A stretch of 64,000 nucleotides of DNA from Bacteroidota bacterium (GTDB lineage Bacteria > Bacteroidota > Bacteroidia > Bacteroidales > FEN-979): the NCBI GenBank assembly GCA_026391805.1, contig JAPLDJ010000017.1:19378-83377 (forward strand). Direction: 5' to 3'. Position 1 is the first letter of the stretch. The number at the start of each line of letters is the position of its first letter. The notes under the pieces were generated by a model. That model was given only the letters and a program-made list of their open reading frames with translations, made no database searches and had not been told where the DNA came from. Positions 16,440 through 29,187 of the stretch are shown piece after piece. Made by a program: the position numbers and the translations under genes.

Positions 16440-17639
16440 ATGTACGGTAAGTTCAAGGAGCATCTGCAGAAGCAGATCGATGCAATCATTTCAGAAGGAC
16501 TTTACAAGGAGGAACGGATTCTGACGACACCCCAGGGGGTTGAGATCAAGACCGACAAGGGTCAGAAGGTGTTGAATTTCTGTGCCAACAATTACCTCGG
16601 GTTATCGAATGATCCGAGGACGATGGCGGGTGCGAATTACACCTTTTTCCGTTATGGTTACGGGATGTCATCCGTGCGGTTCATCTGCGGTACACAGAAG
16701 ATCCACAAAGATCTTGAAGCAAAGTTGAGCGAGTTTCTTGGGATGGAAGATACCATCCTTTATTCATCGGCCTTTGATGCCAACGGAGGTGTTTTCGAAC
16801 CCTTGCTGAGCGAGCAGGATGCCATCATTTCCGATGAACTGAACCATGCCTCCATCATCGACGGGATCAGGCTTTGCAAGGCGCAGCGGTTCAAATACAA
16901 AAATAACGACATGGAGGACCTCGAGGAGGTTCTGCAGGATGCATGTGAGGCCCGGTTCAAGCTGATCGTCACCGACGGAGTGTTTTCCATGGACGGCATC
17001 ATCGCACAGGTCGACAAGATCTGCGACCTGGCGGAAAAATACAACGCGCTGGTCATGGTGGATGATTCACATGCCACCGGGTTTGTCGGGAAGACCGGCC
17101 GGGGAACAGTGGAATATTGCAATGCCCAGGGGCGGGTTGACATCATCTCGACGACCTTCGGGAAAGCGCTTGGAGGCGCATCCGGCGGATGTATCTCCGG
17201 CCGGAAGGAGATCGTTGAACTGTTGCGGCAGCGGTCGCGGCCCTATCTTTTTTCAAATACCCTTGCGCCTGCCATTACCGGCGCGACACTGGAGGTGCTG
17301 AACCTGCTTTCGGAAACCACCGTACTCAGAGACAGGCTTTTCAGGAATACGGAACGGTTCAGAAAAGGCATGGAACAGGCCGGTTTCAGGATCGTCGCAG
17401 GGATCCACCCCATCGTGCCGGTACTGTTCGGACATCTTCCCAATGATGCCAAACTCTCACAGGATTTTGCCAATGAATTGCTCGAAGAAGGCGTTTATGT
17501 GATCGGATTTTACTACCCGGTGGTCCCGAAAGGAAAATCCAGGATAAGGGTACAGATAAGTGCTGCACATTCGCTTGACCAGATCGACTTTGCCATTGAG
17601 AAGTTCACAATGGTCGGAAAGAAACTCGGAGCGATTTAA
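16440..17639 (+). CDS. kbl: glycine C-acetyltransferase (2-amino-3-ketobutyrate CoA ligase)-like alpha-oxoamine synthase
   Basis: 399 aa and collinear with E. coli Kbl as I recall it. Shared blocks are NFCANNYLGL, YGMSSVRFICGTQ, HASIIDGIRLC, DGVFSMDG, DDSHA, TFGKALGGASGG and RPYLFSN. Confidence 0.8.
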   Translation: MYGKFKEHLQKQIDAIISEGLYKEERILTTPQGVEIKTDKGQKVLNFCANNYLGLSNDPRTMAGANYTFFRYGYGMSSVRFICGTQKIHKDLEAKLSEFLGMEDTILYSSAFDANGGVFEPLLSEQDAIISDELNHASIIDGIRLCKAQRFKYKNNDMEDLEEVLQDACEARFKLIVTDGVFSMDGIIAQVDKICDLAEKYNALVMVDDSHATGFVGKTGRGTVEYCNAQGRVDIISTTFGKALGGASGGCISGRKEIVELLRQRSRPYLFSNTLAPAITGATLEVLNLLSETTVLRDRLFRNTERFRKGMEQAGFRIVAGIHPIVPVLFGHLPNDAKLSQDFANELLEEGVYVIGFYYPVVPKGKSRIRVQISAAHSLDQIDFAIEKFTMVGKKLGAI

Positions 17640-17663
17640 TTCAATCCATAAAAGAATTCACCC

Positions 17664-18044
17664 ATGATTTACGGAACTGGGACGGATATCATCGAAGTCG
17701 CCCGAATCAAAACGGTTATGGAACGCGACATCGGTTTCCGGGAAAAGATCTTTACCCCTGGAGAAATCGCCTATTGCGAGACAAAGAAGCACAAATTCGA
17801 AAATTATGCAGCCCGTTTTTCCGCCAAGGAAGCCTTCATGAAAGCCATTGGCACCGGCTGGAGATTCGGGATCCGGTTTGCCGATATCGATGTTTACCAT
17901 GATGAATATGGAAAGCCATTGATCCGCCTTACGGGTAAAGCAGAAGAACTCGCCCTGCGTGAAAGGATTTCAAAAATTCATGTATCTTTATCGCATGTTA
18001 AGGAGATCGCTACGGCGATCGTTATTGTAGAAAACGAGATCTGA
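17664..18044 (+). CDS. acpS: holo-[acyl-carrier-protein] synthase
   Basis: 126 aa. MIYGTGTDIIEVARI is the GxD(I/L)xE motif. The C-terminal block is IHVSLSHVKEIATA. Confidence 0.85.
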   Translation: MIYGTGTDIIEVARIKTVMERDIGFREKIFTPGEIAYCETKKHKFENYAARFSAKEAFMKAIGTGWRFGIRFADIDVYHDEYGKPLIRLTGKAEELALRERISKIHVSLSHVKEIATAIVIVENEI

Positions 18045-18127
18045 GGTCTGAAAATAGAAGATGGAGAATGGAGGATAGAAGACATACGTCATACGACATA
18101 TGACATACGAAAAATACATATGACAAA
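18041..18127. repeat. tandem word mosaic related to 7387-7599
   Basis: It shares tctgaggtc and the exact 16-mer gagaatggaggataga (18064-18079 = 7505-7520). This is followed by catacgtcatacgacatatgacatacga. Confidence 0.85.
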
Positions 18128-18182
18128 AACCAATTAACTCACATAAATCAACAGGTATTAACTAAAAACAGCGATTTCAACT

Positions 18183-19886
18183 ATGTCTAACATCGGTTCT
18201 TACGACGAACGAATCAAAAATTTTTCCTGGGCCATTGCGGAACAGGAACTGGATTACAAACCAGGGAATGTCATTAACATAGGCTGGTACTGCTCCGACC
18301 GGATCTGCCAGATGGGAAAGGCAGATAAACTGGGACTGATCTGGGAAGGCCAGGGAGGTGTGGAAAAAAAATACACTTACAACGACATCCGCATTGCCAC
18401 CAACACGATCGGACAGTTTCTGCGGGATCTCGGGATCAAGCCCGAAGACCGCGTCTGCCTCTTCATGGACAAGATCCCTGAACTCTACCTCGGTTTCCTT
18501 GGCATCCTGAAGACCGGTGCCATAGCGCAGCCGCTCTTCTCCGCCTTCGGCGATGAATCCCTTTTCATCCGCCTTGAAAATGCACAGACAAGGGCCGTCA
18601 TCACCCAGAAGAAACATGCACCGAAAGTCAGGAAGATCATTGAAAAGATGCCCTGGCTTGAATACCTGATCATCGTGGACCAGGATCCTGCAAAGCCTTT
18701 ACAGCAAAGGGAAGTCGCTCTGAATCTTGAGGAGCTTCCGAAGGTGGAGAAATTCGAAATCCATCCCACTTATGCTGAATCTCCTTCGGTGCTGCATTAT
18801 ACCTCCGGCACGACCGGACAGCCGAAAGGGGTGAAACATGTTCATTATTCACTGATCTCACAGTACCTCACCTCGAAATGGGTGCTTGACCTGCAGGATG
18901 ATGATATTTACTGGTGCACGGCCGATCCCGGCTGGGTGACAGGAACCTCCTACGGGATCATCGGGGCGTTCAGCAACGGGGTTACGCAATGCGTCATGGA
19001 TTCAGGATTCTCGGCAGAGAACTGGTACCGGTTCATCGAGAAGCACAGGATCACCATGTGGTATTCGGCACCGACGGCCATCCGCTCGCTGATGAAAGCC
19101 GGCGACGAGGTGATCAAGAAATTCGATCTCTCCTGCCTGCGTCACCTGGCCAGTGTTGGAGAGCCGCTGAATTCGGAAGCTGTCATCTGGTCCGAAAAAG
19201 TATTTGGGAAGCCTTTCCTCGATACCTATTGGCAAACAGAAACCGGTTCCATCATGATCTCGAATTACCCCGGCATGAAGATCAAACCCGGTTCCATGGG
19301 CAAGCCTTTTCCCGGGATCACGGCAACGGTTATCGATGCGGATAAGTTCGAACCCTTCGGCGAAACCGGCAAAATCGGGCTGATCGCAATCAAGCCCGGC
19401 TGGCCGTCGATGATGCGGATGTACTGGAACAACGAGGAGACCTATAAGAACAAATTCAAGAATGGCTGGTATCTTCCCGGCGACCGTTCAAGCATCGACA
19501 ATGAAGGCTATTTCTGGTTTGTGGGACGCGATGATGATGTCATCAATACAGGAGGACATCTTGTAAGCCCGTTCGAAGTTGAATCGGCATTGCTGGAACA
19601 CCCCGCTGTTGCTGAATCCGCCGTTGTCGCAAAACCCGACTTCGTCAACATGGAAGTCGTGAAAGCCTTTGTAACCCTGAAACCAGGATTTGTTGGCAGC
19701 AAAGACCTGGATCTTGACATCATGAACTTCGTACGGAAAAAACTTTCCCCGCTGGCCATGCCACAGGAGATCGAATTCATCGATTCATTGCCGAAAACAC
19801 GAAGCGGGAAGATCATGCGCAGGATCCTCCATGCGAAGGAGTGGGGAGAGGAGATTGGGGATACTAGCACATTGGAAAATGATTAA
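18183..19886 (+). CDS. AMP-forming acyl-CoA/acyl-carrier synthetase (adenylate-forming enzyme, short/medium-chain Acs-like)
   Basis: 567 aa. A3 motif YTSGTTGQPKG, A5 motif YWQTETG, A8 motif GRDDDVINTGGH, and A10 motif LPKTRSGKIMRR. Confidence 0.85.
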   Translation: MSNIGSYDERIKNFSWAIAEQELDYKPGNVINIGWYCSDRICQMGKADKLGLIWEGQGGVEKKYTYNDIRIATNTIGQFLRDLGIKPEDRVCLFMDKIPELYLGFLGILKTGAIAQPLFSAFGDESLFIRLENAQTRAVITQKKHAPKVRKIIEKMPWLEYLIIVDQDPAKPLQQREVALNLEELPKVEKFEIHPTYAESPSVLHYTSGTTGQPKGVKHVHYSLISQYLTSKWVLDLQDDDIYWCTADPGWVTGTSYGIIGAFSNGVTQCVMDSGFSAENWYRFIEKHRITMWYSAPTAIRSLMKAGDEVIKKFDLSCLRHLASVGEPLNSEAVIWSEKVFGKPFLDTYWQTETGSIMISNYPGMKIKPGSMGKPFPGITATVIDADKFEPFGETGKIGLIAIKPGWPSMMRMYWNNEETYKNKFKNGWYLPGDRSSIDNEGYFWFVGRDDDVINTGGHLVSPFEVESALLEHPAVAESAVVAKPDFVNMEVVKAFVTLKPGFVGSKDLDLDIMNFVRKKLSPLAMPQEIEFIDSLPKTRSGKIMRRILHAKEWGEEIGDTSTLEND

Positions 19887-19889
19887 AAA

Positions 19890-19921
19890 GTAGCGAAAGG
19901 CGAAAAGCGAAATAGCGAAAA
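19890..19921. repeat. GCGAAA-word array
   Basis: The sequence is gtagcgaaaggcgaaaagcgaaatagcgaaaa. Confidence 0.8.
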
Positions 19922-19959
19922 AATACATAATTATAAATTAAACAATAGGAGAAAACCTG

Positions 19960-20202
19960 ATGGAAGACATGAAAGAAATCATTAAACAGTATGTCATCAA
20001 TGAATATGTGGAAGATGACAGTGAAGTCACTTTCGACACGCCGCTTATCTCGGGCGGGATCGTCGATTCATTTTCAATGGTATCGCTCAAGCGGTTCCTC
20101 GAGAATAAATACAAGATCTCCATTCCGGATGACAAGGCCACACCCGAGGCGTTTGATTCGGTCAACAAGATCTGTTTACTGGTGAATGAATACTTAAAAT
20201 AA
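19960..20202 (+). CDS. stand-alone phosphopantetheine carrier protein (non-FAS type)
   Basis: 80 aa. The candidate attachment serine lies in GGIVDSFSMVSL. The size and helix pattern fit an ACP/PCP fold. Confidence 0.7.
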   Translation: MEDMKEIIKQYVINEYVEDDSEVTFDTPLISGGIVDSFSMVSLKRFLENKYKISIPDDKATPEAFDSVNKICLLVNEYLK

Positions 20203-20214
20203 CGGAGGTAACCT

Positions 20215-21462
20215 ATGGCATACAGCGACAAAGTACGCGGAACGTACCAGGAGATCATCAATGGGATGAAAGACGCAGGTCTTTTAAAAGTTGAACGCTA
20301 CATCCATTCTGCACAGGCTGCAGACATCGAAGTGGAATTTCCGGCAGGAGCTCCTCTGAAGAAAGTGATCAATATTTGCGCGAATAACTACCTTGGCCTC
20401 TCCAGTCATCCGGATGTGGTCAAAGCTGCCCATGAAGGCCTCGACTCCCATGGCTATGGCATGTCTTCCGTTCGCTTTATTTGCGGAACCCAGGATATTC
20501 ACCGTACTCTCGAAGGAATGGTCACAAAATTCCTGGGAACCGAAGACACCATCCTCTTCCCATCCTGCATGGATGCCAATGCCGGTGTGTTCGAAGCCGT
20601 TCTTACCAAAGACGATGTGATGATCTCCGACCGGCTGGTCCATGCATCGATCATCGACGGGATCCGCCTTTGCAGCGCCATGCATGATACCTACAAGCAT
20701 TCCGACATGGCCCACCTGGAGGAAAAGCTCCAGCTGCACAACGACAAACGCCTGAAGATGGTGATCACCGACGGCGTCTTCTCCATGGACGGCGATACCG
20801 CAAAGCTTGACCAGATGGCCGACCTGTGCGAAAAATACGATGCTTTGCTGTTCTGCGATGAATCGCATTCCAGCGGTTTCATCGGCAAGACCGGCCGCGG
20901 AACGCATGAAAAATGCGGCGTCATGGGACGGATGGACATCATCACCACCACCTTCGGAAAAGGCCTTGGAGGCGCATCCGGCGGTTGTGTATCCGGACGG
21001 AAAGAGCTCGTTGAAATGTGCCGCCAGAAAGCACGTCCGTATCTTTTCTCCAATACCATTGCACCACCGGTTGTGGCTGGTGTAATCAAGGTCCTCGAGA
21101 TCCTTTCGGCTACCACCGAACGTCGCGACAAATTGGAAAAGAACACCGAATTCTGGCGTAAGGGACTCACTGAAATGGGACTCATCATCAAAGAAGGTGA
21201 TACGCCGATTGTTCCTGTGATGCTCTTCAATGCAAAGCTTTCGCAGGATGTTTCCCGCGATCTCTATGAAGAGGGCATCTATGCCATCGGTTTCTTCTTC
21301 CCAGTTGTACCGCAAAGCCAGGCCAGGATCCGCACGCAGATCTCCGCCGGCCACGAGATCCACCATCTTGAAAAAGCACTGGCTGCCTTCAAGAAAGTAG
21401 GAGCAAAGTACAATATCCTTGGCAAGACCAAGCAGGAGATCATTGATATGTACGGTATGTAA
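20215..21462 (+). CDS. alpha-oxoamine synthase (Kbl/SPT-like PLP enzyme), paralog of 16440..17639
   Basis: 415 aa with NICANNYLGL, YGMSSVRFICGTQ, HASIIDGIRLC, DGVFSMDG, TFGKGLGGASGG and RPYLFSN. It starts 12 nt after the carrier-protein stop. Confidence 0.85.
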   Translation: MAYSDKVRGTYQEIINGMKDAGLLKVERYIHSAQAADIEVEFPAGAPLKKVINICANNYLGLSSHPDVVKAAHEGLDSHGYGMSSVRFICGTQDIHRTLEGMVTKFLGTEDTILFPSCMDANAGVFEAVLTKDDVMISDRLVHASIIDGIRLCSAMHDTYKHSDMAHLEEKLQLHNDKRLKMVITDGVFSMDGDTAKLDQMADLCEKYDALLFCDESHSSGFIGKTGRGTHEKCGVMGRMDIITTTFGKGLGGASGGCVSGRKELVEMCRQKARPYLFSNTIAPPVVAGVIKVLEILSATTERRDKLEKNTEFWRKGLTEMGLIIKEGDTPIVPVMLFNAKLSQDVSRDLYEEGIYAIGFFFPVVPQSQARIRTQISAGHEIHHLEKALAAFKKVGAKYNILGKTKQEIIDMYGM

Positions 21463-21467
21463 GCTCA

Positions 21468-21549
21468 AGTAGCGAAAAGCGAATTGGCGAAGTAGCGAAA
21501 ATTTTGACATTAATTTCGCCAACTCGCTACATCGCTTTTCGCTTTTTAT
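21468..21549 (+). repeat. imperfect palindrome built from GCGAAA words, probable terminator
   Basis: The outer stem agcgaaaagcga...tcgcttttcgct is 12 bp. An inner gcgaaaatt/aatttcgc pairing is present. It is followed by ttttt. Confidence 0.7.
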
Positions 21550-21567
21550 TTATGAAATAAAATAATC

Positions 21568-22125
21568 ATGGAACAAAAGTTAGCTAATCCTGCTCCGCTC
21601 GGGCTGATGGGGTTTGGAATGACCACGGTCCTGCTGAATATCCACAATGCAGGATTTTTTCCTGTGAGTGCGATGATCCTCGCCATGGGCATCTTTTACG
21701 GAGGGATTGCCCAGGTGATCGCGGGCATAATGGAATTCAGGAAAGGAAACACTTTCGGAATGACCGCATTCACATCCTATGGGATTTTCTGGATAACCCT
21801 TGTCGCCCTCTGGATCTTCCCGAACCTTGGCGCTGATAAAGGCATCAAGACGGATGAATCCTTCATGGGATGGTACCTTTTCCTCTGGGGCGTTTTCACC
21901 TTCTTCATGTGGATTGGTACCTGGAACAAGAACCGGGTGCTTCAGTTTGTCTTTTTATCCCTCTGGATCCTTTTCCTCCTTCTTGCATTGCGCGACTGGA
22001 CCGGCTGGGCAAGCTTCGGAATGATTGCCGGCTATGAAGGCATTCTTTGCGGGAGCTCGGCCATTTACCTTGCCATGGCGGAGGTGCTGGAGGAGGCGAG
22101 GGGGAAGAAAATACTTCCGTTTTAA
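21568..22125 (+). CDS. satP: GPR1/FUN34/YaaH-family acetate/succinate channel
   Basis: 185 aa with 6 TM helices. Family signature NPAPLGLMGFGMTT at the N-terminus. Confidence 0.85.
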   Translation: MEQKLANPAPLGLMGFGMTTVLLNIHNAGFFPVSAMILAMGIFYGGIAQVIAGIMEFRKGNTFGMTAFTSYGIFWITLVALWIFPNLGADKGIKTDESFMGWYLFLWGVFTFFMWIGTWNKNRVLQFVFLSLWILFLLLALRDWTGWASFGMIAGYEGILCGSSAIYLAMAEVLEEARGKKILPF

Positions 22126-22715: not shown

Positions 22716-23243
22716 TCATTTTGATGATCCCCCAATTTTATATCCGATCTTTTCCCTTGGTTGATTTTCTTCCCTGATAAGTTCTTTAATGGCCTCGAAA
22801 ACGAGGATGAATTTTTTATCATATTTTTCTTCAAGGGAATCAATACGTCTTATAAGATCTTTATTTGCATCAATCAATTTGCGAAGATTAACAAAAGCCC
22901 GCATGATGGCGATGTTGACCATAATTGCCCTTTTTGAGCGTAGCACGCTGGAAAGCATGGCAACCCCCTGTTCGGTAAAAGCAAAGGGCGGAAATGGCTT
23001 AAAACGGCTGTAAACACTGAGGTTATCACAATTTGTGATAACCTTCTCCCATTCTTCCCTGGTCAATACAAACATGAAATCATCGGGGAACCGGTCTATG
23101 TTTCTTCGGACCTGTTGCTTTAGAATGCGTGTCTCCATGTCATAAAGCCTGGCAAGGTCAAAATCAAACATGACCTTCTTTCCTCGCAGAAAATAGATTT
23201 GCTGAGCAAGTTCTTCCGCTGGAATTGGAAGTGTGTTTTCCAT
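22716..23243 (-). CDS. ORF6N (KilA-N-related) domain protein
   Basis: IYFLRGKKVMFDFDLARLYDMETRILKQQVRRNIDRFPDDFMFVLTREEW matches the ORF6N domain pattern common in Bacteroidota. Confidence 0.7.
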   Translation of the reverse strand: MENTLPIPAEELAQQIYFLRGKKVMFDFDLARLYDMETRILKQQVRRNIDRFPDDFMFVLTREEWEKVITNCDNLSVYSRFKPFPPFAFTEQGVAMLSSVLRSKRAIMVNIAIMRAFVNLRKLIDANKDLIRRIDSLEEKYDKKFILVFEAIKELIREENQPREKIGYKIGGSSK

Positions 23244-23300: not shown

Positions 23301-24662
23301 TTAAAAGAAGAAATACACTCCGAGAAGGCCGCGGAGGTTCCCTACTTCACTCTGATTATAGACATAGCCCTTTTCGTTGGTCTTGCCATACGCCGCAACT
23401 GTATATTCAATCTCGGCGGCGATCCTGAATTTTTTGATGTTCAGAATAAGGCGGGGAGAAATGCGGTAGAGGTAATCGATGTTGCTTCCCCGGGAATAAT
23501 AAGGACCGGTAACGGTTTCTCCGGCGCCAAGGTTTTTGCTGAAAGCGGCAAAAAGCCCGGGAACCCAGGTTTTCCCGTTGGTGGAAAATTCAAACCAGGT
23601 AGAAAGTGTACTTAACGCAGAATAACTTTCGGTTCCTTTGCCGGCATTGGAAATGTTTTTCACCGCATAGCCGCCCAGCATGGTAAATGCATAGTTGTTT
23701 GATCCGTAAAATCCGCCTGCTTTAAGGGTTATTTTCGAAAGGCGCAGTTTTGAAAAGAGGTTGAAGGAGAGTCCTGAAGTTGTCTCCGTGGATCTGTAGG
23801 TTGCAGTAACAGCATTATGATGAACCACGAGTCCGTCGACAACAGTATCGTATGCTTTTTTCTGGACCACCTCTGTTGAAAGTCTCGGCGTCAGCAGGAT
23901 GTAATCAACCCCGGCGCCGACCAGGAATTCGGTTCCTTTCGTTTCATTCTTGATGCCGTACTGGACCTGGAAATCCATTTCAGGAAGAACGGAATTCCGC
24001 AGGTATTTCGGGTTTGGTCCGTCGGGACCGTTGGAAGTAAAGTCCAATTGAGAAAGTGCGGTGAGAATCAGTTTAAAATGCCCGAGACTTTGCGTGACCC
24101 GGATCTGCGGGTTCCTGGAAAAGACGACAAAAGGAGCGCCGGTATTGAATGAAACGGTCTCAGGGGCACAGGTGGCTACGAACATGGGATGCCAGTATTG
24201 TCCCACCATCAGTTCCGTGTGCGTCCATGCCAGTTTCACCCAGGCATGCCTGAGCCGGAAGGAATTGATGGCACCGTTGGTGTTACCGAAAAATTCCCCT
24301 TCGATATAGGCGGAGGTTTTGGCCTTCAGGGCATCGGGACCGGTAAAAGCCCCAGCCAGCCTTGTCTGGATGGAGAGCATGTTAAAATTCGACTTTGCAT
24401 TGATGTCATTTCCTTCGGCATCTTTTACAATGGCGTCGGGATAGAGGAGGAACTGCCCCTCCCTTGAATTTACCGTCTGGCGGGAATCATAATAGATATC
24501 AGTTTTTACATAACCCGAGAAGGTGAAACCGATCAGGGGCGGCTTTTTCTCAGCCTTTTCAGTTTTCAGCGTATCTGCAGCTGGTTTCTCTTGTTTTGTC
24601 TGGGCAAACAATGAACCGGCAGAAAATGTAAGAACCAGGATAAAAGGTAAGATTCGCTTCAT
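23301..24662 (-). CDS. outer-membrane beta-barrel porin-like protein
   Basis: The start is set at MKRILPFILVLTFSAGSLFAQ. Alternating beta-strand pattern, with aromatic C-terminus GVYFFF. Confidence 0.6.
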   Translation of the reverse strand: MKRILPFILVLTFSAGSLFAQTKQEKPAADTLKTEKAEKKPPLIGFTFSGYVKTDIYYDSRQTVNSREGQFLLYPDAIVKDAEGNDINAKSNFNMLSIQTRLAGAFTGPDALKAKTSAYIEGEFFGNTNGAINSFRLRHAWVKLAWTHTELMVGQYWHPMFVATCAPETVSFNTGAPFVVFSRNPQIRVTQSLGHFKLILTALSQLDFTSNGPDGPNPKYLRNSVLPEMDFQVQYGIKNETKGTEFLVGAGVDYILLTPRLSTEVVQKKAYDTVVDGLVVHHNAVTATYRSTETTSGLSFNLFSKLRLSKITLKAGGFYGSNNYAFTMLGGYAVKNISNAGKGTESYSALSTLSTWFEFSTNGKTWVPGLFAAFSKNLGAGETVTGPYYSRGSNIDYLYRISPRLILNIKKFRIAAEIEYTVAAYGKTNEKGYVYNQSEVGNLRGLLGVYFFF

Positions 24663-24722
24663 AGCAGAGTGTTTTTGGGATGCAAAATACGTGAAAAATC
24701 CCGTCATTTCCTCAAGAACTCT

Positions 24723-24730
24723 TACCTTTG
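24723..24730 (+). promoter_or_regulatory. putative -7 box (TAnnTTTG)
   Basis: tacctttg lies 28 nt upstream of the ATG at 24758. Confidence 0.45.
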
Positions 24731-24757
24731 CGGCTGTTTCCGTACTCCCAGAACTCA

Positions 24758-27442
24758 ATGAACATCCACAATCTTGATCCCATCTTCAATCCTAAACGGA
24801 TTGCCCTCATCGGCGTAACCACCAACCCCAACAGCGTCAGCGGTAAAGTCCTGATCAACCTTGTCAGCAGCGGTTTCCGCGGCGTGGTTTACCCTGTCAA
24901 TCCCGATCATGAAGCCGTGATGGGCATACCATGTTATCCCGATATCAAAAGCCTTCCGAAAGTTCCCGACCTTGGCATCATCTGTTCACCGGCAGAAAAG
25001 GTTCCGGGATATTTGGAAGAATGCGGCGAAAAGGGCATCCTGGGCGTGATCATTATTTCTGCCGGTTTTAAGGAGACCGGGGAGAAGGGACATAAGCTTG
25101 AAGAGTCGATCAGTACGATCAGGAAGAAATACGATGGGATGCGGATCATCGGGCCGAACTGCCTCGGGATCATCGTTCCCTCATTGCAGCTCAACGCCAG
25201 CTTTGCGGCAGCCATGCCCAAATCCGGGAACATTGCCTTCATTTCTCAATCGGGGGCCTTGTGCACTTCGGTACTTGACTGGGCCATGGAAGGGAAGATC
25301 GGGTTCAGCCAGTTTGTATCGATCGGCAACAGCATCGACGTGGAATTCGGCGATCTCATTGATTATTTCGGGGAAGATGAAAATACGAAATGCATCATTC
25401 TTTACATTGAATCGATCTCCAATGCCCGGAAATTCATGACGGCTGCACGTGCATTTGCGCGAAAAAAGCCAATCATTGTTTACAAGGCAGGAAGGTTCCC
25501 GGAATCAGCGCAGGTTGCAGCCTCACACACAGGGGCCATGGCCTCGGAAGATGCAGTATACGACGCTGCCTTCCAGCGTGCAGGACTGGCCCGGGTTTAT
25601 GAGATCGGAGATATTTTCAGCGTAGCCGAGCTGATCGGAAGAAATAAATATCCGCGGGGCCCGCGGCTGGGGATCATCACAAATGCCGGCGGACCCGGTG
25701 TGATGGCAACCGATGCCCTGGTGGCATCAAACGGTGTGCTGGCCGAACTGTCGGAAGTGACAATGGCAAAGCTCAACGAGAACCTTCCGGCTTTCTGGTC
25801 GCACGGGAACCCGGTGGATGTTCTCGGAGATGCAAGGGCAAAACGTGTTTCAAAAGCAACACAAATTGTTCTTGAAGACGAAAACGTGGATGCGGTGCTG
25901 GTGATCCTTACACCCCAGGCGATGACCAATCCGAATGCCACGGCAAAAGAGATCAGCCTCCTTGCCGCATCAACCACGAAACCCATCCTGGCTGCCTGGC
26001 TGGGTGGACAGAGCATGCATGAGGCCGACGACATCCTGGTTGAAGCAGGAATTCCCTCCTATAAAACACCCGAACAGGCCATCCGTGCCTTTATGACGAT
26101 GGTTTCTTATTCACGGAACCTGGAAATACTGTATGAAACACCCCGTGATATTCCTGTTGAGTTCAGCGTCGACCGGATTCGCCTGAGAGAGGAATTCAAA
26201 CAGATCATCGAACAGAATGAAGCCATCCTTCCGGAGGAGACCTCGAAAACCATTCTCGAATCCTACGGGATACCGACCACAAGGCCTATTATTGCTGCAA
26301 CTGACGAAGAGGCTGTCATTGCCGCAGAGCAAATCGGTTACCCGGTGGTCATGAAGATCCATTCCCCTGATATCACACATAAATCTGACGTGGGAGGTGT
26401 CATCCTGAACATTTCAGATCGTATCCAGGTGAAGAATGCATTTCTGAAAATCAGGGAATCTGTTCTTGCGCATAACTCATCTGCACGCATAACGGGTGTT
26501 ACAGTACAAAAAATGATCTCCTCAAAGGATGCCGTTGAACTCATCCTCGGGATCAAAAAAGACAACATTTTCGGAACAGTGCTGATGGTCGGCATGGGCG
26601 GCATCACGGCTGAACTGTTCAGCGATAAGGCGCTTGGATTTCCGCCCCTGAATGAAAGCCTTGCCCGCCGGATGCTCGAATCCCTGAAGATTTATCCGCT
26701 GCTCAAAGGATACCGGGGAAGCAAGCCGAAGAAGATCGATGAACTGATACAGGTACTGATAAGGTTATCGTACCTTGCTGCCGACTACCCGGAGATCGCA
26801 GAGCTTGACATCAATCCGCTGCTGGTCACATCCAAAGAGGTAATCGCGCTGGACGGAAGGATCGTTATTGATCCGGGAATAGTGCGGCAGGAGAATCATC
26901 CGTATGCCCATCTCGCCCTTCATCCGTACCCGGAAGAACTGGTTAAAGAAGTAATACTGGAAGACGGAACCCGGTTGATCCTGCGGCCCATCAAGCCTGA
27001 AGACGAACCCCTCTGGCTTTCGATGATCGGTCGCTGTACCAAAGAGAGCCTCTATTCACGGTTCAGGTATTTTTTCCACTGGGAATCGCACGAAGTGGCC
27101 ACACGGTACTGCTACATTGATTATGACAGGGAAATTGCAATTGTTGCAGAGTTGAACGATGAGGAGGGAAAGAAGCTGCTCGGAGTAGGACGTCTTATCG
27201 CCGATCCCGACCACGAGAACGTGGAATATGCGATCCTGATCGAAGATGCCTGGCAGCAAAAAGATCTCGGCAACCTGCTGACGGATTATTGTCTTAAAAT
27301 TGCCGGTACATGGAACCTGAAGCGGTTTATTGCCCAGACCACTACCGACAACAAGCGGATGATCTTCGTTTTCCGCAAGCGGGGATTTGAGGTCAGCATT
27401 AATTCGCAGGATTCCACAGTCGATGTGACGAAGGAATTATAG
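24758..27442 (+). CDS. ADP-forming acetyl-CoA synthetase-like / GNAT fusion (Pat-type protein lysine acetyltransferase)
   Basis: N-terminal CoA-binding and succinyl-CoA-synthetase-like flavodoxin domains (IALIGVTTNPNSVSGK, GPNCLGI, SQSGAL). An ATP-grasp domain follows. C-terminal GNAT domain (LRPIKPEDEPLW...RKRGFEV). Confidence 0.85.
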   Translation: MNIHNLDPIFNPKRIALIGVTTNPNSVSGKVLINLVSSGFRGVVYPVNPDHEAVMGIPCYPDIKSLPKVPDLGIICSPAEKVPGYLEECGEKGILGVIIISAGFKETGEKGHKLEESISTIRKKYDGMRIIGPNCLGIIVPSLQLNASFAAAMPKSGNIAFISQSGALCTSVLDWAMEGKIGFSQFVSIGNSIDVEFGDLIDYFGEDENTKCIILYIESISNARKFMTAARAFARKKPIIVYKAGRFPESAQVAASHTGAMASEDAVYDAAFQRAGLARVYEIGDIFSVAELIGRNKYPRGPRLGIITNAGGPGVMATDALVASNGVLAELSEVTMAKLNENLPAFWSHGNPVDVLGDARAKRVSKATQIVLEDENVDAVLVILTPQAMTNPNATAKEISLLAASTTKPILAAWLGGQSMHEADDILVEAGIPSYKTPEQAIRAFMTMVSYSRNLEILYETPRDIPVEFSVDRIRLREEFKQIIEQNEAILPEETSKTILESYGIPTTRPIIAATDEEAVIAAEQIGYPVVMKIHSPDITHKSDVGGVILNISDRIQVKNAFLKIRESVLAHNSSARITGVTVQKMISSKDAVELILGIKKDNIFGTVLMVGMGGITAELFSDKALGFPPLNESLARRMLESLKIYPLLKGYRGSKPKKIDELIQVLIRLSYLAADYPEIAELDINPLLVTSKEVIALDGRIVIDPGIVRQENHPYAHLALHPYPEELVKEVILEDGTRLILRPIKPEDEPLWLSMIGRCTKESLYSRFRYFFHWESHEVATRYCYIDYDREIAIVAELNDEEGKKLLGVGRLIADPDHENVEYAILIEDAWQQKDLGNLLTDYCLKIAGTWNLKRFIAQTTTDNKRMIFVFRKRGFEVSINSQDSTVDVTKEL

Positions 27443-28249: not shown

Positions 28250-29187
28250 TTATTTCTGAAGTTTCTTCCCCACCTCGGTGATCATCAGTTCAACCATTTT
28301 AGGAAGATCGTACTCGCAGGTAAGTCCCCAGTCCTTGCGGGCCACGGCGTCATCGATGCAGGCAGGCCAGGAATCTGCAATGGCCTGGCGGAAATCGGGC
28401 TTGTAGGTGATCTCAAATTCAGGGATGTGTTTCTTAGCTGCTGAGGGTTAAAACAGATGCCACCCACGTTGTAGCTTGAACGCAAAGATAATGCTGAGGC
28501 ATCCGCTTCCATAAGGTCGATGGTTGCCTTGATGGCATCCGACATGAACATCATCGGAAGATCCGATTGCGGACCAAGGAAACATTCATACTTTTTCTTC
28601 CTGACAGCTTCGTAAAAAATCTCAACGGCGTAATCAGTAGTTCCGCCGCCGGCCTCGGTCTTGTAGCTGATCAGTCCGGGGTAGCGAAGACTCCGGGTAT
28701 CGACTCCATATTTCTGGTAATAGTATTCGATCCACCGCTCGCCTGCCAGCTTGCTGATGCCGTAAACGGTATTCGGTTCCATGATCGTAAACTGCGGTGT
28801 ATTGTAACGTGGTGTTGTGGGACCGAAAACAGCAATGGAACTTGGCCAGAACACTTTTTTGATCTTCAGCTCGCGGGCCAGCTCAAGGACATTGATCAGG
28901 CTCTTCATGTTGATATCCCATGATGCCAGGGGACGCTTTTCGGCATTCCCGGAGAGGATGGCTGCAAGATGGTACACCTGTGTGATCCTTTCATGTTCAA
29001 GGATAAGTTGCAGTTTTGCCGTATCCATCACATCGAGGATCTCAAACTTGCCCGTTTCAGCGATCTCTGCGGGTGCAGGACGGATATCGGTTGCGATTAC
29101 ATTTTGATCCCCATAACGGTTCCGTAATTCGAGTGTAAGTTCCGAACCGATCTGCCCGGAACAGCCAATGACGAGTATTTTTTCCAT
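28250..29187 (-). pseudogene. tdh: L-threonine 3-dehydrogenase (SDR/epimerase-type), interrupted by an apparent 1-nt deletion near 28445-28447
   Basis: N-terminus MEKILVIGCSGQIGSELTLELRNRYG. The reading frame degenerates after ...YNVGGICFNP. The adjacent frame then reads AKKHIPEFEITYKPDFRQAIADSWPACIDDAVARKDWGLTCEYDLPKMVELMITEVGKKLQK up to the stop at 28250-28252. The total length of 938 nt is not a multiple of 3. Confidence 0.8.

Follow-up and report, generated by a model that had tools for sequence, protein, structure and literature searches.

Introduction

A described system that resembles the one reported here is the AasR/AcpR/SPT system of Caulobacter crescentus, encoded by CC_1165, CC_1163, and CC_1162 (PMC9386255). 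Its putative acyl-coenzyme A (CoA) synthetase acylates only its own acyl carrier protein (ACP), AcpR, and not CoA, and its serine palmitoyltransferase (SPT) prefers acyl-AcpR (PMC9386255). A cassette of comparable makeup is present in a stretch of 64,000 nucleotides, referred to here as the window (assembly GCA_026391805.1, contig JAPLDJ010000017.1, positions 19,378 to 83,377 of the forward strand), from a Bacteroidota bacterium of the Bacteroidales. The cassette holds genes for an AcpS-type phosphopantetheinyl transferase (AcpS), an AcsA-type adenylate-forming enzyme (the ligase), a dedicated carrier protein (the carrier), and an alpha-oxoamine synthase (AOS) that is called AOS2. A second AOS gene, AOS1, lies upstream, and both synthases are related to Kbl, the glycine C-acetyltransferase. 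The operon may encode a carrier-protein-dependent version of the Kbl reaction, in which acetate is loaded on the carrier and condensed with glycine. This is offered as a tentative reading that falls somewhat short of probable.

We know of no earlier acetate:[carrier protein] ligase or carrier-dependent Kbl. An earlier note on this DNA, made from the letters of the window, had known of no characterised Bacteroidota pathway that shows exactly this gene order. In literature searches, whose coverage stopped short of subscription-only papers, neither the cassette nor a carrier-dependent Kbl nor an acetate:carrier ligase was found to have been described.

Conservation of the cassette

The earlier note had described five genes on one strand, with their motifs and spacing, and had recognized two of them as AOS paralogs. 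The positions of the open reading frames (ORFs), all on the plus strand, a pairwise alignment, and family scans agree with that description. AOS1 and AOS2 are separated by 2575 nt and are 53% identical over 397 residues, with the blocks YGMSSVRFICGTQ, HASIIDGIRLC, DGVFSMDG, TTFGK(A/G)LGGASGGC, and RPYLFSNT in common. Between the carrier stop and the AOS2 start lie 12 nt. Scans against Pfam and NCBIfam identified Aminotran_1_2 in both synthases, an ACPS/holo-ACP synthase, AMP-binding and AMP-binding_C in the ligase, and a carrier protein. The motifs YTSGTTGQPKG and PKTRSGK are found in the ligase and GGIVDSFSMV in the carrier.

The neighborhoods of these genes were explored through two surveys. 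The carrier-centred survey used the carrier as query against one genome per species, and the AOS2-centred survey used AOS2 as query against an independent metagenome collection. In each, the best 80 loci were analysed, so that the edges of the families lie outside these matches, and the denominators given below are the loci with enough sequence to judge. The carrier has relatives in at least 480 species-representative genomes, and AOS2 has relatives on at least 588 contigs from metagenomes. Within the carrier family, the 120 best database clusters are 83-94% identical to the query.

In the carrier-centred survey, AOS2 lies directly 3' of the carrier at every locus (75/75), the ligase directly 5' of the carrier at 66/71, and AcpS directly 5' of the ligase at 54/65. 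The gap between carrier and AOS2 has a median of 16 nt at these loci, and 10-16 nt is typical. The AOS2-centred survey gave the same picture from the other side, with the carrier upstream at 72/72 loci, the ligase at 48/49, and AcpS at 43/49. A gene for a Kbl of the AOS1 type (at least 70% identity) was found upstream at 34 of 51 loci, and another Kbl-like gene (50-70%) is nearby in 8 more. The SatP-family gene that follows AOS2 in the window has counterparts 3' of AOS2 at 27/71 carrier-centred and 20/68 AOS2-centred loci.

The 80 best carrier loci are all on metagenome-assembled genomes (MAGs). Their hosts belong to the Bacteroidales (Prolixibacteraceae, Lentimicrobiaceae, Rikenellaceae, and Draconibacterium), Delongbacteria, Zixibacteria, Aminicenantes, and Terriglobia, and the ligase-carrier-AOS2 trio is also present in a Tenuifilaceae MAG (L006). 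All hosts seen are from lineages of anoxic sediment, peat, or lake water. Ligase, carrier, and AOS2 co-vary in their pairwise identities (Spearman rho 0.76-0.87). Across phyla the three proteins remain at least 63-74% identical (ligase and AOS2 at least 72-74%), and AcpS falls to 26-29%. The flanking genes are wholly different between phyla. In some loci AOS1 and AcpS are separated by inserted genes; these were considered as additional pathway members and were rejected, since they vary from locus to locus. Because the flanks and these inserts vary, the conserved core is taken to be (AcpS)-ligase-carrier-AOS2.

Gene content, gene order, co-inheritance, family placement, and residue conservation were all observed directly. 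The cassette is a strongly conserved unit, and its recurrence is far beyond chance. The earlier note had treated the adenylating enzyme, its own carrier, and the AOS as one unit, and near-perfect synteny in both survey directions bears this out. It had also proposed gene neighborhoods as a check, and ligase, carrier, and AOS do recur together in Bacteroidota and in further phyla.

Three contigs come from MAGs labelled Hyphomicrobiales, Alphaproteobacteria, and Proteobacteria (L020, L022, and L054). Their cassette parts are 81-91% identical to those of the window, and the flanking gene order of L022 is that of the Bacteroidales loci L025 and L029. These three contigs are probably mis-binned.

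AOS2 and its relation to Kbl

AOS1 is placed as Kbl by two equivalog models, NF005394 (619 bits, cut-off 460) and TIGR01822 (613 bits, cut-off 493). AOS2 is a member neither of the Bacteroidota SPT model NF047600 (302 bits, cut-off 640) nor of the BioF model TIGR00858 (346 bits, cut-off 426), and on the SPT models overall it reaches 224-302 bits, with cut-offs of 500-670. Both synthases are far under the cut-offs for BioF, 5-aminolevulinate synthase (ALAS), CqsA-type synthase, and all three SPT models. The solved structures nearest to AOS2 are those of Kbl (E=1.8e-133 to 1.6e-125), to which it is 52-54% identical, followed by SPT (1e-62) and the cysteate acyltransferase 28eh (3.4e-47).

In a neighbour-joining tree, built without support values, all 75 carrier-adjacent AOS proteins form one tight, long-stemmed clade inside the broad Kbl radiation, and the nearest solved relative is the Kbl of C. 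necator. Among the AOS proteins of this tree, those of the AOS2 clade occur only beside a carrier. Sister to this clade is a second AOS copy, encoded directly after AOS2 in loci of the Delongbacteria type. AOS1 clusters with the E. coli, 7v58, and Coxiella Kbl proteins. On the Kbl model, the second copy of the Delongbacteria-type loci scores 599 bits and the Kbl of L020 scores 582 bits. Therefore, most loci pair a normal Kbl with AOS2. The earlier note had regarded an AOS2 that nests inside Kbl and lacks synteny with ligase and carrier as a refutation of its reading, and here the outcome is split. The first is found, with residues of the acetyl/glycine type; the second is not, as both genes are tightly syntenic with AOS2.

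Eleven catalytic and substrate positions were compared, among them the Lys that binds pyridoxal 5'-phosphate (PLP), the His that stacks on it, the Asp at the pyridine N, and the carboxylate Arg. Each is invariant across 75/75 proteins of the AOS2 clade and 42/42 Kbl references. The chemistry and the glycine site of AOS2 appear unchanged. The differences lie elsewhere (residues are numbered by the 1fc4 chain). The Asn that precedes the PLP-stacking His is present in 100% of Kbl and is Val in AOS2. The Kbl segment CKAKRYRYANND reads CSAMHDTYKHSD in AOS2, with Arg153->His and Arg155->Thr. Further changes fixed in AOS2 are Phe115->Met, His328->Thr, and Gly336-Asp337->Phe-Asn. Near its N-terminus, AOS2 also has an F-P-x-G insert, and a conserved tail of about 14 residues (ILGKTKQEIIDMYG) is present at its C-terminus. 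Together with the insert and the tail, basic residues that are new in AOS2 (R140, K171, R303, K326, K387, and K406) are predicted to make up the docking site.

The change at Arg153 can be compared with ALAS. Arg153 lies 14 residues after the catalytic His, and the same spacing separates Lys156 from His142 in R. capsulatus ALAS. In ALAS, this Lys is part of the wall of the adenosine pocket and makes a hydrogen bond to the ribose of CoA, and the equivalent change in mouse ALAS2, K221V, raises the Km for succinyl-CoA 23-fold (PMC4615937). The matching position is Arg in 98% of Kbl references and His in 96% of the AOS2 clade. At the CoA-adenosine pocket, AOS1 still has the Asn and an Arg-x-Lys/Arg motif. 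The Delongbacteria second copy has the insert and the tail in common with AOS2, yet its residues at these positions are still Asn, Arg, and Arg. This pattern suggests that AOS2 is a Kbl that no longer recognizes the nucleotide part of CoA.

Seven new His residues are fixed among the clade-specific positions of AOS2 (AOS2 positions 65, 73, 157, 162, 167, 175, and 384), and AOS2 has 15 His residues in comparison to 7 in AOS1. They might serve in metal binding, pH sensing, or carrier docking. In two Zixibacteria loci, a third and very divergent gene of the AOS family is found just 3' of AOS2 (L075:6054-7379 and L082:11573-12997). Its products have an N-terminal extension and score 311-322 bits on the Kbl model, under every curated cut-off.

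The ligase

The best solved relative of the ligase is a 572-residue Acs, 9g79 (E=3.6e-165, 47% identity). On models of long-chain fatty-acid--CoA ligases it reaches at most 304 bits, with a cut-off of 476. The acetate pocket of S. enterica Acs is formed by V310, T311, V386, and W414. With the ligase numbered by hand from a HMMER alignment to that enzyme, the equivalents of these residues (Val, Thr, Val, and Trp) and of the catalytic Lys609 are invariant in 70/70 ligases. The pocket Trp is replaced by F, G, S, C, or Y in many outgroups. Because the pocket is invariant and its Trp is variable in outgroups, acetate is most likely the acid that is activated, with propionate a minor substrate at most. 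The earlier note had called this protein a 567-residue acyl-AMP ligase. It is adenylate-forming as stated, and the NF003313 model and the pocket residues narrow it from a generic enzyme of this kind to an AcsA-type, acetate-activating one.

The ligases form an isolated clade. In a search of 1.8 billion cluster representatives, the nearest full-length relatives were AcsA-like proteins of about 50% identity. The clade has 21 specific invariant positions, of which nine are in the C-terminal domain (489-554). Seven of these nine (489-526) flank position 518, the equivalent of R584 in S. enterica Acs, a residue that contacts the 3'-phosphate of CoA. The C-terminal positions near the R584 equivalent are suggestive of an altered thiol acceptor and are not diagnostic of it. 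The change R526->Leu was considered as a signature of carrier use and was rejected; Leu is present in all members of the clade but also in several AcsA-like outgroup proteins.

A protein of 949 residues, P0122, was examined as a possible fusion of the ligase to a carrier or an AOS. This was rejected, as it is an Acs split by an intein. The intein, which has a homing-endonuclease-like insert, sits within the conserved YWC|TADPGW motif of this AcsA-type Acs.

The carrier and AcpS

The carrier is a divergent carrier protein. Its best NCBIfam match is to an ACP family (E=2.5e-17, under the cut-off). The label of that match, ACP_for_OlsHI, was rejected as a functional lead because of the sub-cut-off score and because OlsH is independent of both ACP and CoA; the OlsH paper reports that neither is required. 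Residues 28-66 of the carrier are at least 95% invariant among 69 sequences, and the isoelectric point is 4.4. Ser37, within the invariant GGIVDSFSMV, is predicted to be the site that bears phosphopantetheine.

An alignment-based AlphaFold model of the carrier (pLDDT 85.4) places Ser37 at the start of helix II. The closest folds are those of PigG and PltL (TM-score 0.80-0.87, root-mean-square deviation 1.5-1.9 A), together with the carrier of the B. japonicum glycine:[carrier protein] ligase and DltC, and all of these outrank AcpP of fatty-acid synthesis (FAS). In helix II, Lys44 and Arg45 stand in place of the acidic AcpP pattern. The earlier note had placed the carrier serine in a context other than that of FAS, and both the motif and the rank of the stand-alone folds, which are of the peptidyl carrier protein (PCP) type, agree. 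A single-sequence AlphaFold model gave an uninformative fold search (TM-score ~0.3), and the alignment-based model was used instead. AcpS matches PF01648 (E=4.8e-17) and TIGR00516 (103 bits, cut-off 59.8).

The threonine link

A gene of the 'Epimerase' family of short-chain dehydrogenases/reductases (SDRs) was first found beside the cassette in two loci. When the SDR of L004 was compared with solved structures, it matched the L-threonine 3-dehydrogenase 7ol1 (E=1.6e-125), and 17 more solved sequences of the SDR-type L-threonine 3-dehydrogenase family, natural and engineered, match it at E<=2e-78. This enzyme, Tdh, makes or consumes 2-amino-3-ketobutyrate, which is the substrate of Kbl. The position of tdh differs among lineages. 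In the Zixibacteria loci L063 and L075 the order is tdh-AcpS-ligase-carrier-AOS2 on one strand; L066 has the same order by tblastn, and L004 has it without AcpS. In L020, tdh lies directly 3' of AOS2. In six Bacteroidales loci (L001, L013, L019, L026, L078, and L085) it is divergent and upstream of AOS1. The presence of tdh as a neighbor and its 2-amino-3-ketobutyrate chemistry therefore tie the cassette to the chemistry of threonine and glycine. The earlier note had overlooked both this link and the acetate context.

The tdh copy of the window is 51-52% identical to the locus copies and has an apparent frameshift at 28435. A contig from run X2 has 13 extra nt here (TATCTCATCGGCC) that restore the frame, and the contigs from X1 and X3 stop exactly at 28435 with unrelated loose ends. 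From these 13 nt and contig breaks, the idea that this tdh is a pseudogene was rejected. The break is probably an assembly artefact or a strain or structural variant and not a sign of a dead gene.

Proposed reaction and alternatives

In the proposed pathway, AcpS would place phosphopantetheine on Ser37 of the carrier. The AcsA-derived ligase would then adenylate acetate, and the thiol of the carrier, in place of CoA, would accept the acetyl group from acetyl-AMP. AOS2 would condense the acetyl-S-carrier with glycine to form 2-amino-3-ketobutyrate. The neighboring SDR-type Tdh could interconvert this product and L-threonine, and any product that is not captured would decay to aminoacetone. A private carrier would provide a thioester pool apart from acetyl-CoA, with its acetylated fraction kept high by ATP hydrolysis. 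Such a pool could push a condensation that is unfavourable at the cellular acetyl-CoA/CoA ratio. A parallel would be the use of ACP for fatty-acid synthesis and of CoA for degradation. That acetate and glycine are the substrates, that both enzymes use the carrier, and which way the pathway runs are all inferred from sequence and gene context. It could well be, and we would stop just short of calling it probable, that threonine and glycine plus acetate are interconverted by an ATP-coupled, carrier-dependent route in anaerobic Bacteroidales, Zixibacteria, Aminicenantes, and Delongbacteria, either as acetate-driven threonine synthesis or as an ATP-forming route.

A number of observations weigh against a carrier-dependent Kbl reaction. 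AOS2 passes both Kbl models (NF005394, 551 bits, cut-off 460; TIGR01822, 548 bits, cut-off 493), and the ligase passes the model for AcsA-type acetate--CoA ligase, NF003313, if marginally (746 bits, cut-off 729). The ligase keeps the R584 equivalent and may still use CoA. No ligase residue diagnostic for carrier use was found among the 70 members in comparison to outgroups; as the Caulobacter work notes, acyl-CoA synthetases have given rise to acyl-ACP synthetases on several occasions, and no simple signature marks the change (PMC9386255). The gap-free correspondence of the Arg153 segment between Kbl and ALAS is itself an inference, and the reading of the lost Arg rests on ALAS homology and not on a structure of Kbl with CoA; in the Kbl structural paper (PMC9814548), no usable residue-level CoA contacts were found. 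The locus is present in none of the RNA-seq runs that were checked for co-transcription. The SatP gene lies beyond a terminator-like hairpin and accompanies the cassette at only about a third of loci. Lastly, a CoA-type Kbl is co-transcribed in many loci, and if it ran opposite to AOS2, the two would form a futile shunt from acetyl-carrier to acetyl-CoA. Some of these points would fit an ordinary acetyl-CoA synthetase and a CoA-dependent Kbl paralogue that together lead from acetate to threonine and glycine, with the carrier and AcpS acting as a regulatory or structural partner of AOS2 or belonging to some other pathway. Both enzymes do pass curated equivalog cut-offs for CoA-dependent activities, and the ligase offers no residue that would mark it as carrier-specific. 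However, the carrier is fixed to AOS2 in both surveys and to the ligase as well, in several phyla and among unrelated flanks; its core is almost invariant, and the phosphopantetheinyl transferase travels with it. AOS2 has also lost basic residues of the CoA-adenosine pocket that co-resident Kbl copies keep, and the ligase, with its marginal NF003313 score, belongs to an isolated clade. A pair of ordinary CoA enzymes is thus considered quite unlikely.

If the carrier is the substrate, the loading and condensing direction seems somewhat the more probable, and the reverse is a serious possibility that falls a little short of it. Loading is favoured because the cited ligase/carrier precedents load, an acetate transporter is often downstream, and the enzyme is of a high-affinity, AMP-forming type. 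The known pairs AasR/AcpR, PigI/PigG, and PltF/PltL in general work in this direction, and we know of no ligase/carrier pair that runs in reverse. In a catabolic version of the same carrier chemistry, Tdh would oxidise threonine to 2-amino-3-ketobutyrate, AOS2 would cleave this product with the thiol of the holo-carrier into glycine and acetyl-S-carrier, and the ligase would run backwards to make ATP (acetyl-S-carrier + AMP + PPi -> acetate + ATP + holo-carrier), with acetate leaving through SatP. The private carrier would set the ratio of acetyl-thioester to thiol independently of CoA and so favour ATP formation. The anoxic lineages of the hosts would suit this, and tdh and the CoA-type Kbl, which are co-located or co-transcribed with the cassette, would make a coherent set if all of them cleave. 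Cleavage is the usual physiological direction of Kbl, and SatP-family proteins could also export acetate. In Syntrophus aciditrophicus, an AMP-forming Acs is known to run backwards and so to produce ATP, with acetyl-CoA, AMP, and PPi as its substrates (PMC4992975, PMC13404658). In the alignment, however, the CoA-binding loop that is reported to bias that enzyme, SaAcs1, falls in a segment absent from AcsA-type enzymes. The loading precedents also stand against the catabolic version, and acetyl-CoA from the ordinary Kbl could already give ATP by standard routes, which makes the benefit of a new carrier doubtful. On balance, net catabolism by this route seems unlikely, if less so than the CoA-only pair above. 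The product might instead be a small diffusible aminoketone or pyrazine, with the acetyl-carrier condensed with glycine or another small amino acid to an unstable aminoketone, which, as aminoacetone after decarboxylation, would dimerise to alkylpyrazines or act as a signal. The 2-amino-3-ketobutyrate of Tdh and Kbl is a known source of aminoacetone and alkylpyrazines (PMC9814548), the fixed changes by the active site of AOS2 (N->V, F->M, H->T, and GD->FN) could alter the handling of the product, and the carrier is of a secondary-metabolism type. Against this, the very high conservation across phyla (that of ligase and AOS2, and the invariant carrier core) and the lack of tailoring, export, or receptor genes that recur with the core in the surveyed loci fit primary metabolism, and AOS2 has kept the residues that handle glycine and PLP. 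Of the small-molecule product that the earlier note had suggested, 2-amino-3-ketobutyrate with its decay to aminoacetone is still compatible, whereas a dedicated aminoketone or pyrazine pathway is a minor possibility and appears very unlikely. The note had also suggested a sphingoid or capnoid base, for which a fatty acid would be activated and a long-chain base made. The domain architecture does equal that of AasR/AcpR/SPT, and the SPT and cysteate acyltransferases of Bacteroidota are Kbl-like in sequence. Yet the invariant acetate pocket with its Trp wall limits the acid to about C2, and the ligase scores on long-chain models are far below its acetate score. AOS2 is of the Kbl type and far below the SPT cut-offs, solved SPT and cysteate acyltransferase are much more distant from it than Kbl, and ceramide or sulfonolipid genes were not found near the surveyed loci. 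A lipid product is therefore close to refuted.

Layout of the locus and neighboring genes

The features of the locus are listed in Table 1. A hairpin with a U-run directly follows AOS2 (-35.8 kcal/mol, z=-4.5), and 0 of 200 shuffled sequences were as stable. Hairpin-capable repeats of different sequence are found in the same place after AOS2 in L007, L011, and L038. From this hairpin, the transcription unit probably stops after AOS2, and SatP would be only loosely attached.

Table 1. Features of the cassette and its surroundings in the window.
Feature	Position	Strand	Description
AOS1	16440-17639	+	399 aa; Kbl of the orthodox CoA type (glycine C-acetyltransferase); in this lineage the operon begins with it
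AcpS-type 4'-phosphopantetheinyl transferase	17664-18044	+	126 aa; presumed to convert apo-carrier to holo-carrier
AcsA-type adenylate-forming enzyme	18183-19886	+	567 aa; proposed acetate:[carrier protein] ligase
Dedicated carrier protein	19960-20202	+	80 aa; PCP/DltC-like; Ser37 is the predicted phosphopantetheine site
AOS2	20215-21462	+	415 aa; Kbl-derived alpha-oxoamine synthase; use of acetyl-S-carrier proposed
Terminator-like hairpin and U-run	21467-21550	+	operon end after AOS2; from RNA folding
SatP/YaaH-family acetate transporter	21568-22125	+	frequent, non-obligatory neighbor; NF038013 274 bits (cut-off 50)
Pat-like protein	24728-27442	+	904 aa; ADP-forming acyl-CoA-synthetase-like domains and GNAT
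SDR-type L-threonine 3-dehydrogenase (tdh)	28256-29187	-	homologue of the L004 and L001 SDRs

Upstream of and inside the operon, no known RNAs or riboswitches were found at gathering thresholds, and matches at E<=1 were at chance level. Scans for sigma-70 promoters and terminators gave counts equal to those of shuffled controls and were rejected as evidence. An inverted repeat in the spacer between AcpS and the ligase (18083-18109) was considered as an operator and was rejected, as it is absent as a conserved feature in close relatives. Many short GC-poor repeats are present in the spacers 18045-18182 and 21463-21567 and in L008:5541-5678, and they are unlike between close relatives. Examples are CATACG/CATATGACA in the window and GCGAATAG in L008. 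Conservation of the spacer is limited to about 45 nt before the start codon of the ligase.

The Pat-like protein has CoA_binding, Succ_CoA_lig, and ATP-grasp_5 domains and a C-terminal GNAT domain. It is found near the cassette in 13 Bacteroidota loci, in Aminicenantes (L074 and L080), and in Zixibacteria (L066). By analogy with the known relation of Pat to Acs, it may regulate the ligase by acetylating the catalytic Lys. Alternatively, it may be a working ADP-forming acetyl-CoA synthetase.

Other genes are present around the cassette. In the window, a gene on the minus strand (22716-23243) encodes a 175-residue protein with an ORF6N domain and lies between thioredoxin-like and porin-like genes, downstream of the cassette. 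The ORF6N domain is common in regulators of phages and mobile elements. The porin-like gene (23301-24758, minus strand) encodes a predicted outer-membrane protein of 485 residues without a Pfam match, and its homologues are found near the cassette in 22 loci, including one of Aminicenantes (L074). In the Delongbacteria-type loci (L047, L053, L058, L064, L067, L070, and L071), the cassette is always followed by the second, CoA-type Kbl and then by a protein of about 1254 residues with an N-terminal Ser/Thr-kinase-like domain. This arrangement could be a functional linkage or mere local synteny.

Significance

Kbl and Acs are textbook CoA enzymes, and curated models label the enzymes of the cassette as ordinary Kbl and Acs. 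Because of these labels, the system is hidden in the automatically annotated genomes that carry the cassette. CoA as the thioester partner is a defining property of the Kbl and AcsA families, and it is this property that is questioned by the gene context and by the AOS2 substitutions. If the proposed reaction is true, neither its acetate:[carrier protein] ligase nor its carrier-dependent Kbl would, to our knowledge, have a precedent. With the carrier as the true thioester partner, a dedicated carrier would serve the acetyl group in primary metabolism, and the principle of a private carrier pool would extend from lipid and secondary metabolism to that of threonine, glycine, and acetate. The cassette is carried by uncultured anaerobes that live in sediments, peat, and lakes, habitats in which the turnover of acetate and amino acids drives carbon flow. 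Part of their central C2 and amino-acid metabolism would then run on a private, protein-bound thioester rather than on CoA.

Comparison with known systems

Several known systems share parts with the cassette. AcsA-type Acs (9g79, NF003313) has the length class, the acetate pocket, and the catalytic Lys of the ligase, and a possible Pat-type acetyltransferase is found near the cassette. The ligase differs in forming an isolated clade beside a carrier and an AOS, in its 21 clade-specific positions, and in the carrier thiol that is proposed as its acceptor. Tdh-Kbl degradation, represented by E. coli Kbl (1fc4) and the Tdh and Kbl of Cupriavidus necator (7bxp), shares with the locus the Kbl model, the catalytic residues, and tdh and kbl as neighbors. 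Classical Kbl uses free CoA and acetyl-CoA and has no carrier, ligase, or phosphopantetheinyl transferase, whereas AOS2 forms its own clade with an altered CoA-adenosine pocket, an insert, and a tail.

The folds closest to the carrier are those of PigG/PigI, PltL/PltF, the 4h2u carrier, and DltC/DltA (TM-score 0.77-0.87 for PigG, PltL, and 4h2u). The PigG, PltL, 4h2u, and DltC carriers hold amino acids for secondary-metabolite or cell-wall pathways, whereas the partner of the cassette carrier has a hydrophobic acetate pocket. Among AOS enzymes, SxtA and E. coli BioF are able to use ACP-bound acyl groups of short or medium length. SxtA is multidomain, resembles a polyketide synthase (PKS), and condenses with arginine; BioF joins pimeloyl-ACP from fatty-acid synthesis with alanine, and AOS2 is under the BioF cut-off.

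The AasR/AcpR/SPT system is probably the best model for how the cassette works. Both encode together a small specialised carrier, an AOS, and a ligase of the ANL family that bears the annotation of an acyl-CoA synthetase. The AasR/AcpR/SPT system starts from a long-chain fatty acid and yields a lipid base, with a FadD/Aas-like ligase and a serine palmitoyltransferase as its synthase. The cassette instead has an AcsA-type ligase with an acetate pocket, an AOS of the Kbl clade, a PCP-like carrier, a phosphopantetheinyl transferase within the unit, and a threonine/glycine context. The sequences of the two are not orthologous, and the cassette is not a member of the AasR/AcpR/SPT system.

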